IMG/VR virus record: IMGVR_UViG_2703718869_000013
Location: 1 to 64,000 of that record
Length of the DNA stretch: 64,000 nt
Origin: a virus
Lineage: Duplodnaviria > Heunggongvirae > Uroviricota > Caudoviricetes
Reading direction: 5' to 3' (one strand)
Shown: positions 19,760 to 20,695 of the stretch, piece after piece
Numbering within the stretch: position 1 is the first letter of the stretch
How the letters are laid out: each line of letters begins with the position of its first letter
Made by a program: the position numbers and the translations under genes
Notes under the pieces: model-generated
What the model saw: only the letters and a program-made list of their open reading frames with translations
Database searches by the model: none
What the model was told of the DNA's origin: nothing

Positions 19760-19918
19760 CCTCTCACTCCATTATTTAACGAATAAAAAAGCTGCGGTGC
19801 CGGGTTCCTCCCGGTGTCCTTTGGCTGGTTATCCACCGTGGACGTGGAAACAAGGAGAAATAATGGACAGATATAACCATTTCCCCGCGTGCGCTTAGCC
19901 GCATTCACCGCAACGGAA

Positions 19919-19976
19919 AGAGCATTCTTGGTGGACCTGTAGATTGTTACAGGAGAATGCTCTTACCTGTTACGTG
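19919..19976. repeat. nested stem-loop containing the 20-nt repeat gagaatgctcttacctgtta (copy 1)
   Basis: 11-bp stem aagagcattct/agaatgctctt; second copy of the 20-mer at 20597..20616. Confidence 0.45.
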
Positions 19977-20159
19977 CTCCGTTTCGTGGAGCTAACGGCG
20001 GGTGATCAGACCGCACCAGACTGGACTTATTTCAGCGTTATGCTCATGCCAGAGAATCAAACTGTGATGGTCGGTGCTGAACTCCGACACAGGGTTGTAG
20101 CAAGCCCCGCAAAGCGCGCACTACTGTAGTTGCGGCACATCAGCCTGTGCATTCACCAC

Positions 20160-20249
20160 AATGTTGAGAACACTGGTTGTCACGCGGCAACGCAACATTT
20201 ATTCGTAGATTGGGATATGACCCCGTTACGCCAGTGTTCTCAACGTTGT
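20160..20249. repeat. long inverted repeat (18-bp arms, about 54-nt spacer)
   Basis: caatgttgagaacactgg ... ccagtgttctcaacgttg. Confidence 0.5.
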
Positions 20250-20596
20250 AGTTGTTATGCGTATTCTCTTACTAACCGCACACCAATACATTTCCCATCA
20301 CGTTCATTTGTCTCGAAACGTGAATACTTAAGTTCGCCGTTAATAATCGCTGTTACAACCCGTATCCCGTTAAACGCCCACATATTTCGCTCCATTTACA
20401 CACATTACCAGTCGCCGGTTACGGTTCCGGCCAGGCCTCTTCCTCAACGGGGTGTTCTCCATACGGACTACCGTTTATTGGTCGTTCCTGCGGTTTATGT
20501 TGTGAAGCCAGATGCTTATCTTCTGGTTGCTTCTAAGATCTGCACTTCATTACAACGGTAAGAGCACTCGATGCATTTAAGCCAGGCCCCATAAGG

Positions 20597-20616
20597 GAGA
20601 ATGCTCTTACCTGTTA
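20597..20616. repeat. 20-nt repeat gagaatgctcttacctgtta (copy 2), abutting the tRNA-Thr 3' end
   Basis: identical to 19954..19973. Confidence 0.45.
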
Positions 20617-20619
20617 TGT

Positions 20620-20695
20620 TGGTGCCGATTAACGGGATCGAACCGCTGACCATTCGCTTACAAAGCGACTGCTCTACCAACTGAGCTAAATCGGC
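20620..20695 (-). tRNA. tRNA-Thr (anticodon UGU)
   Basis: 7-bp acceptor stem gccgatt/aatcggc, GTTCGATCC T-loop, encoded CCA. Confidence 0.75.

Follow-up and report, generated by a model that had tools for sequence, protein, structure and literature searches.

The closest described counterpart of the locus analysed here is the tRNA region of the ban operon of phage P1 (NC_005856), in which the operator Oban and the Pban promoters are followed by tRNA-Asn, tRNA-Thr, a stretch of ~640-860 bp, downstream genes, tRNA-Ile2 and ban. Our subject is the corresponding segment, positions 19760-20620, of a caudoviricete sequence (IMG/VR record IMGVR_UViG_2703718869_000013, of which the first 64,000 nucleotides, hereafter called the window, were analysed). 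Both have the same locus and synteny, with 91-96% homology in the shared parts. The window differs from P1 by an extra tRNA-Tyr, by the loop of a long hairpin next to tRNA-Thr (hairpin C, with loop type C2 instead of C1), by a 161-bp insertion, by a 13-nt deletion in the loop of a second long hairpin (hairpin A), and by the replacement of tciABC with genes for a membrane protein and an SPFH protein. In the P1 reference annotation the segment is occupied by two genes on the strand opposite to the tRNAs, an annotation to which our comparison gives no support.

Other known systems share single traits with this locus. Duplexes of ~20 bp or more are substrates of RNase III, and processing of the lambda N leader and of T4 species 1 RNA by this enzyme provides phage precedents. 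The RNase III hairpins of these two RNAs and of the T7 early and late sites resemble those predicted in the window in being long, near-perfect duplexes of ~20-23 bp with a bulge, located in untranslated leaders or between tRNAs and mRNAs. However, they have no sequence similarity to the window hairpins, and RNase III sites are not known to be strictly placed after CCA or a terminator. A stem-loop at the 5' end protects E. coli RNAs from RNase E. As in such stem-loops of the ompA type, the stem in the window lies 0-2 nt from a future 5' end, and stem strength is conserved while loop sequence is not, but the window hairpins are internal and would become terminal only after processing. T4-type promoter early stem-loops (PeSL) and integron attC sites are also repeated stem-loops bounding variable cassettes, with modules common to several phages. 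In contrast with them, the window has no predicted promoter, no integrase gene was found in the stretches examined, the attC cores are unmatched, and the strand asymmetry described below favours RNA. Lastly, STnc100 is a prophage-encoded small RNA (sRNA) related to PasD (bioRxiv 10.64898/2026.05.13.724894). An element at the end of the segment matches the central part of the STnc100/PasD model, with its closing helix, its terminal CACCGGGAGG-ACCCGGCACC hairpin and a phage leader origin, but it lacks the 3' part of the family and lies inside an operon rather than forming an independent gene.

The comparisons reported below show that the segment is non-coding, modular and structured on the transcribed strand, and that it is tied in position to tRNA 3' ends and terminators. 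In our favoured reading, to which we assign a probability of roughly 0.6, it is a spacer in the ban-operon transcript under C1 control, untranslated and highly structured, and forms part of a shuffled and partly decayed tRNA array.

A family of long hairpins on the transcribed strand

By its sequence, the window belongs to a P1-like phage that is syntenic with P1. Its positions 21500-21570 are identical at 70 of 71 positions to the annotated Oban/P1ban/P2ban region of P1, and a DnaB-like ban gene is found downstream of the segment. The presence of Oban/Pban upstream and of ban downstream places the segment inside a P1-type ban operon, with transcription of the minus strand. The order of the operon is Pban, tRNA-Asn/Tyr/Thr, the segment, the membrane-protein and SPFH genes, tRNA-Ile2 and ban.

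A first, sequence-only reading of the window had noted that two identical 20-mers bound the segment, that the second abuts tRNA-Thr, that each is embedded in a stem-loop and that an inverted repeat with 18-bp arms lies between them. The direct repeat is real, but the identical run comprises 21 nt (19952-19972 = 20596-20616), so that the first interval had been displaced by 1-2 nt; over 19952-19975 and 20596-20619, 23 of 24 nt match. An 18-mer taken from this repeat occurs twice in 64 kb where 0.03 occurrences are expected, and two matches were obtained in none of 100 shuffles. The second copy indeed adjoins tRNA-Thr, ending 3 nt from the tRNA 3' end, and both copies take part in stem-loops (19915-28/19954-67 and 20557-69/20599-611). 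The inverted repeat is also genuine and larger than reported, with 22-nt arms (20155-20176/20231-20252) that are 91% complementary. A search across the window for inverted repeats of ≥18 nt within 150 nt gave just five, with this one ranked first. In the sense of the tRNA strand, the 20-mers are the RNA-level 5' arms of hairpins A and C, two members of one long-hairpin family, and the inverted repeat is a third copy, hairpin B (Table 1).

Several lines of evidence point to structure at the RNA level. The minus-strand RNA of 19740-20625 has a fold z of -6.3. The predicted energies of the minus-strand RNAs of hairpins C, B and A, given in Table 1, compare with -29.5, -46.0 and -28.1 kcal/mol, respectively, for the plus strand. 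To survey the family, we scanned IMG/VR with a 28-mer of the conserved core block, which together with phage and plasmid loci gave 82 unique (dereplicated) 2-kb extracts; these and four further loci make up the 86 sequences of the hairpin survey. The 261 hairpin instances found in them reduce to 39 distinct arm pairs. They form a 23-pair helix with one bulge, in which 90.4% of the alignment cells are paired, as compared with 35-56% when the partners are slid. Ten of the 23 pairs change on both sides in a compensatory manner, and the covariation score of 0.369, versus 0.194 in shuffles, was reached by 0 of 500 shuffles, with the proviso that the counts do not represent independent events because the hairpin copies are related or paralogous. 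In the tRNA-strand sense, G·U cells outnumber A·C cells by 69 to 20. The pairing potential extends into the CA of CCA (alignment columns 1-2). With 23 paired columns and one bulge, the helix is as long as the continuous duplex of RNase III substrates, which spans about two helical turns (at least 20 bp), and the stems of the window fold as predicted.

Modular organization of the tRNA arrays in P1-like relatives

The 82 extracts display at least 25 architectures, with one to four long hairpins per locus. tRNA-Ser(UGA), tRNA-Tyr and tRNA-Thr are optional, and tRNA-Asn can be replaced by tRNA-Arg(UCU). We observed the latter exchange, with tRNA-Arg(UCU) in place of tRNA-Asn(GUU) at the head of the array, in loci L012, L018, L019, L026, L038, L060, L064, L071 and L120. 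tRNA-Ser is present in 25 of the 82 extracts (P7, D6 and 23 others), exactly at the position of the 86-nt filler of the window, with hairpin A as its trailer; a homologue of hairpin A adjoins the 3' end of tRNA-Ser(UGA) in P7, D6 and other relatives. The positional rule is strict: in all listed trailers, 76 of tRNA-Thr (the eight commonest variants) and 25 of tRNA-Ser, the CCA of the last tRNA of the cluster is directly followed by RCACAAC, the base of the hairpin. At the other end, a small GC hairpin that shows compensatory changes (GCCGG...CCGGC or GUCGG...CCGAC) stands before the first tRNA of each cluster. The basic unit therefore appears, on this comparison, to consist of a small GC leader hairpin, one or more tRNAs and a long trailer hairpin. 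The window would comprise three such leader/trailer units, of which the first alone keeps tRNAs, the other two being orphan spacers. Relatives retain tRNA-Ser(UGA) in the third unit, and the STnc100-like sRNA element closes the array.

Particular loci illustrate how these modules are combined. In phage-plasmid L016, the equivalent of window positions 20063-20243, namely leader hairpin 3, a spacer and hairpin B, represents the entire spacer between tRNA-Thr and tRNA-Ser, with hairpin B directly 3' of tRNA-Thr. In phage-plasmid L142 the order is tRNA-Asn, tRNA-Thr, one long hairpin, the STnc100-like element, tRNA-Ser, a long hairpin and a terminator. The sequence-only reading had called for a comparison with relatives as to whether the stretch between the 20-mers is an indel. 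The amount of sequence between hairpin copies does vary, as in L142, and relatives in which just one hairpin separates tRNA-Thr from the STnc100-like element make the material between the 20-mers an indel in a limited sense; the 20-mers themselves are not the ends of an element. SJ46, L042 and L049 harbour a hybrid hairpin whose 5' half comes from B and whose 3' half comes from A, with deletion of the intervening sequence. The junction lies inside a loop motif shared by the two, GGGKUCAUAUCCCAAUCUAC, and the resulting stem pairs badly. Genomes of the RCS47 type have C2 and C1 hairpins in tandem. Loops are swapped wholesale between copies, giving the loop types A, B, C1, C2, S, X, Y and Z. We also noted canonical T-arm-like loops (GGGUUCGAAUCCC, GAGUUCGACUCUC and CAGGUUCGAUUCCUG) at L001 2107-2200 (the C1 hairpin of P1), at L011 ~598-690 and in the Q-holin leader of L137 (see below). 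Altogether, these alignments show that P1-like phage-plasmids carry their tRNAs (Asn or Arg, Tyr, Thr, Ser and Ile2) as a rapidly shuffled cassette array.

Occurrence beyond P1-like phages

Members of the hairpin family are also found outside the ban operon. Hairpin C, of type C2, has 90-95% identity to its counterparts among the chromosomal matches listed, and the whole query has 235 matching places on E. coli chromosomes. The three chromosomal matches examined (L136-138) correspond to the intergenic leader between the Q antiterminator and holin genes of P22-like prophages. In these leaders the hairpin follows a terminator-like hairpin by a few nucleotides, and neither a tRNA nor an Rfam match was found at the three prophage loci. 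Six further prophage contigs have the hairpin base CACAACGUUGAG/CUCAACGUUGUG after a U run, and in one of them the hairpin separates a CI-like repressor gene from the gene next to it. The FelixO1-like phage Moogle carries a short-stem version 12 nt upstream of tRNA-Arg in a tRNA cluster, in which ARAGORN identified 16 tRNAs over 3 kb. As a side observation, the GenBank records of Citrobacter phage Moogle (L139) and phage D6 (L005) place tRNA genes on the wrong strand: ARAGORN assigns these tRNAs to the other strand, in the same direction as the adjacent tRNAs and hairpins.

The smaller bulged hairpin of the core block, with its loop AGAUAAGCA, has a similar distribution. Beyond P1-like phages, it was found 4 nt 5' of tRNA-Ser in a Klebsiella phage-plasmid, in a late-operon intergenic region of Sashavirus, and in the N leader of epsilon34, between a boxB-like GGCUGAAAAGCC and the start of N. 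The locations recorded for it outside the window are L141 1501-1550, L140 1501-1569 and L014 2001-2047, and Enterobacter phage-plasmids are among its carriers. The invariance of the loop suggests a sequence-specific ligand, and the hairpin matches no known family. In lambda an RNase III site is located between nutL boxB and the N start; in epsilon34 it is the small bulged hairpin, not the long hairpin, that occupies the stretch from nutL boxB to the N start.

In all seven contexts in which orientation is readable, the elements are co-oriented with transcription. These are the P1-like phages, SSU5-like or other phage-plasmids (L014, L016, L142), the Q-holin leader of P22-like prophages (L136-138), the N leader of epsilon34, the Sashavirus late operon, the tRNA cluster of Moogle and a CI-proximal leader (L144). 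The long-hairpin family is absent from Rfam, and we did not find it in the literature by sequence. The Rfam scan suggested by the sequence-only reading returned the tRNAs and a sub-threshold STnc100 hit only, the hairpins being unmatched in the window, in P1, in D6 and at the three prophage loci.

The upl and plp open reading frames

The P1 annotation puts upl (63 aa) and plp (125 aa, 'putative lipoprotein') within the segment, on the strand opposite to the tRNAs. The claim that the segment is poor in open reading frames (ORFs) holds for the tRNA strand only, since ORFs of 61 aa (19944-20129) and 143 aa (20130-20561), both with TTG starts, are present on the plus strand of the window. As had been proposed, there is no credible ORF on the tRNA strand, where the sole annotated one, of 46 aa, lies within the lineage-specific insertion and has no diverged homologue. 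We rejected this 46-aa ORF as a gene: tblastn finds it in the same phage only, and the Prokaryotic Genome Annotation Pipeline (PGAP) calls none. The gene flanking the segment, taken for upl in the sequence-only reading, is in fact a 78-aa ORF (19523-19759, minus strand) for a small membrane protein, paired with the gene of an SPFH (Band 7) lipoprotein.

The plus-strand ORFs show no sign of coding constraint. Relative to the conserved 28-mer, P1 plp reads the core in frame 1, and the 143-aa ORF of the window reads it in frame 2. This frame shift comes from the 161-bp insertion, as 161 is not divisible by three. In the lineage of the window the plp frame is closed by a stop at +28. Across the 82 unique relatives the plus-strand ORF ends anywhere from +28 to +202 and can extend into the hairpin and tRNA-Thr. 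The opposite strand of the filler forms the body of upl in P1, the ATG of upl lies in the 13-nt loop piece that is deleted in the window, and upl is missing from the genomes with tRNA-Ser. Its 19 variable sites are distributed as 6/8/5 over the three codon positions, with 3 synonymous versus 21 nonsynonymous changes, in a small sample of 8 variants. The P1upl promoters are inside tciA, which the window lacks. No Pfam family was detected at threshold for the candidate ORFs, and their PHROG matches are families of unknown function. In the rows listed from PLSDB (931 records) and RefSeq E. coli (881 records), no annotated coding sequence covers the segment, save for one 42-nt match row. Knock-down of upl, plp and trnT in P1 by CRISPR interference gave no phenotype (PMC10695390). 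On these comparisons, neither P1 upl and plp nor the plus-strand ORFs of the window appear to be genes.

Map of the segment and genomic context

Table 1. Modules of the segment and associated features of the window, in window coordinates
Feature	Position	Strand	Remarks
tRNA with CAU anticodon (tRNA-Ile2)	18612-18687	-	
STnc100-like structured element	19793-19912	-	Rfam RF02076, 38 bits vs gathering threshold 47, E 5e-7
Long hairpin A, orphan tRNA trailer	19904-19975	-	5' arm (RNA sense) 19952-19975 = first 20-mer; -34.2 kcal/mol, z -5.1
Filler at the tRNA-Ser(UGA) position of relatives	19976-20069	-	86 nt (19976-20061) and 8-nt CAUCACAG leader motif (20062-20069); 14-locus alignment
Small GC leader hairpin 3	20070-20088	-	RNA GUCGG-AGUUCAGCA-CCGAC, then CAUCACAG
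Long hairpin B	20152-20252	-	Stem ~22 bp; -50.2 kcal/mol, z -7.6
Lineage-specific 161-bp insertion	20253-20413	.	Holds the 46-aa minus-strand ORF (20255-20395); missing in P1, RCS47, P7, D6 and others
Conserved core block	20414-20545	-	Near-invariant in 14 aligned loci; includes small leader hairpin 2 (20414-20431)
Bulged hairpin GAAGCAACCAGAAGAUAAGCAUCUGGCUUC in core block	20505-20534	-	Invariant 9-nt loop AGAUAAGCA
Long hairpin C (loop type C2), tRNA-Thr trailer	20546-20619	-	5' arm 20596-20619 = second 20-mer; -35.3 kcal/mol, z -5.2
tRNA-Thr(UGU), tRNA-Tyr(GUA), tRNA-Asn(GUU)	20620-20866	-	ARAGORN and Rfam; 4-5 nt apart
tRNA-Thr	20620-20695	-	
Small GC leader hairpin 1	20871-20888	-	RNA GCCGG-AGACGUAC-CCGGC; 4 nt 5' of tRNA-Asn
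C1 operator Oban and Pban promoters	21519-21550	-	Palindrome; in P1, promoters for the minus strand (tRNAs, segment, ban)

The region 19400-21000 has 99.9% identity to Escherichia phage vB_EcoM-Ro157c2YLVW (1.6 kb compared) and 91-97% identity, piecewise, to P1, RCS47, P7, D6 and SJ46. Leader hairpin 1 forms an inverted-repeat family with 20412-20434. Leader hairpin 3 belongs to a family GYCGGAG...CCGRY with compensatory C-G to U-A changes, located 9-13 nt 5' of tRNA-Ser in relatives. The loop of hairpin B comprises a T-arm-like GGGGUCAUAUCCC and a second small hairpin. The filler contains a 5-bp hairpin (GCUCC-ACGAAAC-GGAGC, 19976-19992), and neither a tRNA at the default and 80% ARAGORN thresholds nor an Rfam match was found in it. 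Of the 5426 complete E. coli genomes searched, 47 have the 161-bp insertion at ≥99% identity, in each case on a plasmid of ~72-108 kb; in this set it has no chromosomal copy and no PGAP gene.

The STnc100-like element matches positions 31-147 of the 206 of the model, has a fold z of -3.0, and consists of a closing helix UGCGGUG/CACCGCA around three small hairpins. With it the modules end, and the membrane-protein and SPFH genes follow. RF02076 scores are sub-threshold in P1 (33.4 bits) and D6 (39.6 bits) as well. A full STnc100 sRNA assignment was rejected, as the score is below the gathering threshold and the model is covered in part. A U6 run (19787-19792, reverse complement) follows the closing helix, where our scan called no terminator. 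The recombination junction with respect to P1, at ~19793, falls exactly where the closing helix ends. Beyond it, on the minus strand (18715-19759), the genes of the 78-aa membrane protein and of a 275-aa SPFH/Band 7 lipoprotein stand in for tciA-tciB-tciC of P1.

Several observations concern the surroundings of the segment. The Thr/Tyr/Asn tRNA block has 76% identity to the tRNA cluster of N4-like phages, and its Tyr-Asn part ~83% identity to T4-like Enterobacter and Escherichia phages, such tRNA genes evidently being common to very different phage families. The terminator-like hairpin at 21339-21358 (minus strand) consists of UGCCCAUCUUCGGGUGGGCG followed by U7 and sits in the 'dicF-like region' annotated in P1; Rfam gave no DicF match there. 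A very similar terminator immediately precedes a long hairpin in the Enterobacter plasmid L015. Upstream, the ORF of the DNA methyltransferase Dmt (21539-24580, minus strand) encodes 1013 aa from the first listed start, compared with ~754 aa for P1 Dmt. The ORF carries an insert bounded by C...HNC, in which residues 77-126 form a Hint domain and residues 298-361 a LAGLIDADG domain; the insert is thereby an intein with a homing endonuclease.

Alternative explanations and proposed role

The hairpins might be sites acting at the DNA level, as cruciforms or in single-stranded form, that mark cassette boundaries in the manner of integron attC or T4-type PeSL, the RNA structure being a by-product. 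The extreme mosaicism with breakpoints at hairpin arms and loops, the wholesale swapping of loops between conserved arms, the identical modules in unrelated phage families, the short CACAAC/CGCAAC direct repeats that flank tRNA-Ser and the palindrome CAACGTTG in many arms would all fit such sites. However, the excess of G·U over A·C and the greater stability of the tRNA-strand RNA argue for RNA, and a symmetric DNA site would not need the co-orientation found in all seven contexts. Moreover, the one event that could be reconstructed, the SJ46 hybrid, looks like ordinary homologous recombination in the shared 20-nt loop motif and left a badly paired stem. The attC cores (RYYYAAC, GTTRRRY) are unmatched by eye, no integron-type integrase gene was seen in the locus stretches examined, and no promoter was predicted. 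We thus consider a primary role as DNA sites unlikely, if not far-fetched. A slightly weaker case can be made for decayed tRNA genes, or tRNA-like mini-helices with functions of their own, such as decoys of tRNA-targeting nucleases or substrates of tRNA-processing enzymes. T-arm-like pieces are present in P1 hairpin C1 (GGGUUCGAAUCCC), in type Y (GAGUUCGACUCUC) and in types A and B (GGGUUCAUAUCCC and GGGGUCAUAUCCC), ARAGORN at 80% calls a pseudo-tRNA over P1 hairpin C1 and L011 hairpin Y, and on inspection the arm core GGUAAGAGCA resembles the tRNA D-arm GGUAGAGCA. Yet ARAGORN at default, 90% and 80% settings adds nothing in the window, the calls at 70% are on both strands and look like false positives, and Rfam gives no further tRNA match at E values up to 1-5. 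In addition, hairpin A of the window has lost its T-arm-like piece, hairpin C, of type C2, is devoid of one, and types A, B and Y have their T-like arm at the wrong side of the stem. A tRNA-derived function is thus doubtful.

Two other accounts have far less in their favour. That the segment encodes Upl and Plp on the plus strand, with incidental repeats, would agree with the P1 annotation and its predicted promoters, with the open frames of 61 and 143 aa present in the window and with the existence of PHROG families for the upl-like ORF. It is made very improbable by the lineage-dependent reading frames and the plp-frame stop, the variable ORF ends, the deleted upl start codon, the lack of a third-position excess, the lack of Pfam families and listed coding sequences, and the absence of the tciA-borne promoters from the window and of upl wherever tRNA-Ser is present. 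The sequence-only reading had also offered a miniature inserted element or a degraded att-like site, which would be consistent with direct repeats bounding ~640 bp and with L142, in which tRNA-Thr, one hairpin and the STnc100-like element follow each other with nothing in between. But the repeats are the arms of paralogous hairpins, present in one to four copies per locus, and the interior is a chain of modules, each of which is conserved in other phages. No target-site duplication and no other copy of the hairpin family was found in the 64-kb window, and the sole clear lineage-specific insertion, of 161 bp, has a single copy and does not extend beyond one plasmid lineage. Nor did we find the 640-bp unit dispersed over several places with target duplications. 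For an att site nothing speaks, no integrase-type core or arm sites being evident. Insertion of a mobile element or an att site is hardly credible as an explanation. The third proposal of that reading, a structured non-coding RNA co-transcribed with the tRNAs, fares better: it is supported in silico by the fold z, the covariation and the near-identity of the Oban region, with the amendment that the segment is a string of separate modules and not a single RNA. Its observations are partly confirmed and its interpretation partly supported.

Some established classes were also considered and set aside. A MITE (miniature inverted-repeat transposable element) or an element derived from an insertion sequence was rejected because the family is confined to 19.9-20.6 kb of the window and its copies elsewhere are in equivalent leader/tRNA contexts only. 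The hairpins are not intrinsic terminators, as none is called in 19760-20620 and the 3' flanks are GGUGAAUGC or AUGAAGUGC; the scan called no promoter inside the segment either. On inspection, the arm ends ACGTAAC, ACATAAC and GCACAAC, and GTTGCGG and GTTGTGA, each miss the attC consensus at 1-2 positions. PeSL cassettes were discarded as no early promoter is coupled to a stem-loop, with 0 sigma-70-like sites in 18500-21700. A CRISPR array is incompatible with three diverged copies, spaced 248 and 394 nt start to start, whose arms are inverted repeats.

We therefore return to the structured spacer of the ban-operon transcript, in which the hairpins most likely act as punctuation for processing and stability and as recombination substrates. 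In this model, the hairpins of ~20-23 bp would punctuate a polycistronic precursor at the RNA level. Between the CCA of the last tRNA and the start of a hairpin there are 0-2 nt; in other phages a hairpin starts a few nucleotides after a terminator. Because of this placement, endonucleolytic release of the tRNA would leave a downstream RNA that begins with a terminal stem, which may shield it from 5'-end-dependent decay. The stems would also be long enough to serve as RNase III substrates. At the DNA level, the near-identical repeats could be substrates for homologous recombination and thereby allow tRNA and loop cassettes to be added, deleted or swapped.

A number of points weigh against this interpretation. 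Gene conversion between inverted arms could mimic compensatory change. The wholesale replacement of loops and the T-arm-like pieces (GGGUUCGAAUCCC and similar) in four loop types are not explained by a simple role of the stem alone. A terminator-like hairpin (21358-21339, minus strand) is interposed between Pban and the tRNAs, and 0 sigma-70-like promoters are predicted in 18500-21700, where 3.9 are expected. Hairpins A and B of the window no longer follow a tRNA, and they may be functionless relics kept by recency. Transcript, end-mapping or nuclease data on the region were not found in the sources searched, which makes the processing and stability role a conjecture, and searches of the literature on the P1 ban operon and its tRNAs, on P1-like tRNA arrays and on the hairpin sequences yielded nothing.

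A bolder proposal would be that the 'CACAAC' long hairpin and its companion small hairpins constitute an undescribed, widespread phage RNA/DNA module at the boundaries of portable non-coding cassettes (tRNAs, sRNAs, T-arm-like mini-helices), with an active part in the exchange of these, or that the T-arm versions are tRNA mimics directed against tRNA-targeting host defences. We regard this as speculative and rather improbable. Under it, exchange may take place between unrelated enterobacterial phages, including phage-plasmids of the P1-like and SSU5-like kinds, lambdoid and P22-like prophages, and FelixO1-like phages.

Significance

Our finding is a comparative one, obtained in silico, and it does not define a new kind of system. 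The segment would represent a known kind, in which cis-acting processing and stability hairpins are combined with repeat-mediated cassette shuffling. It nevertheless leads to the correction of a long-standing annotation, as upl and plp of P1, which have been carried over into many P1-like records, look like ORFs that arose by chance across structured RNA. The hairpin family, which is not yet catalogued, punctuates both tRNA arrays and the leaders of operons in several groups of phages and offers a handle on how tRNAs are released from phage mRNA operons and how the downstream messages survive. Finally, the shuffled tRNA cassettes bear on the idea that phage tRNAs counter tRNA-depleting defences.

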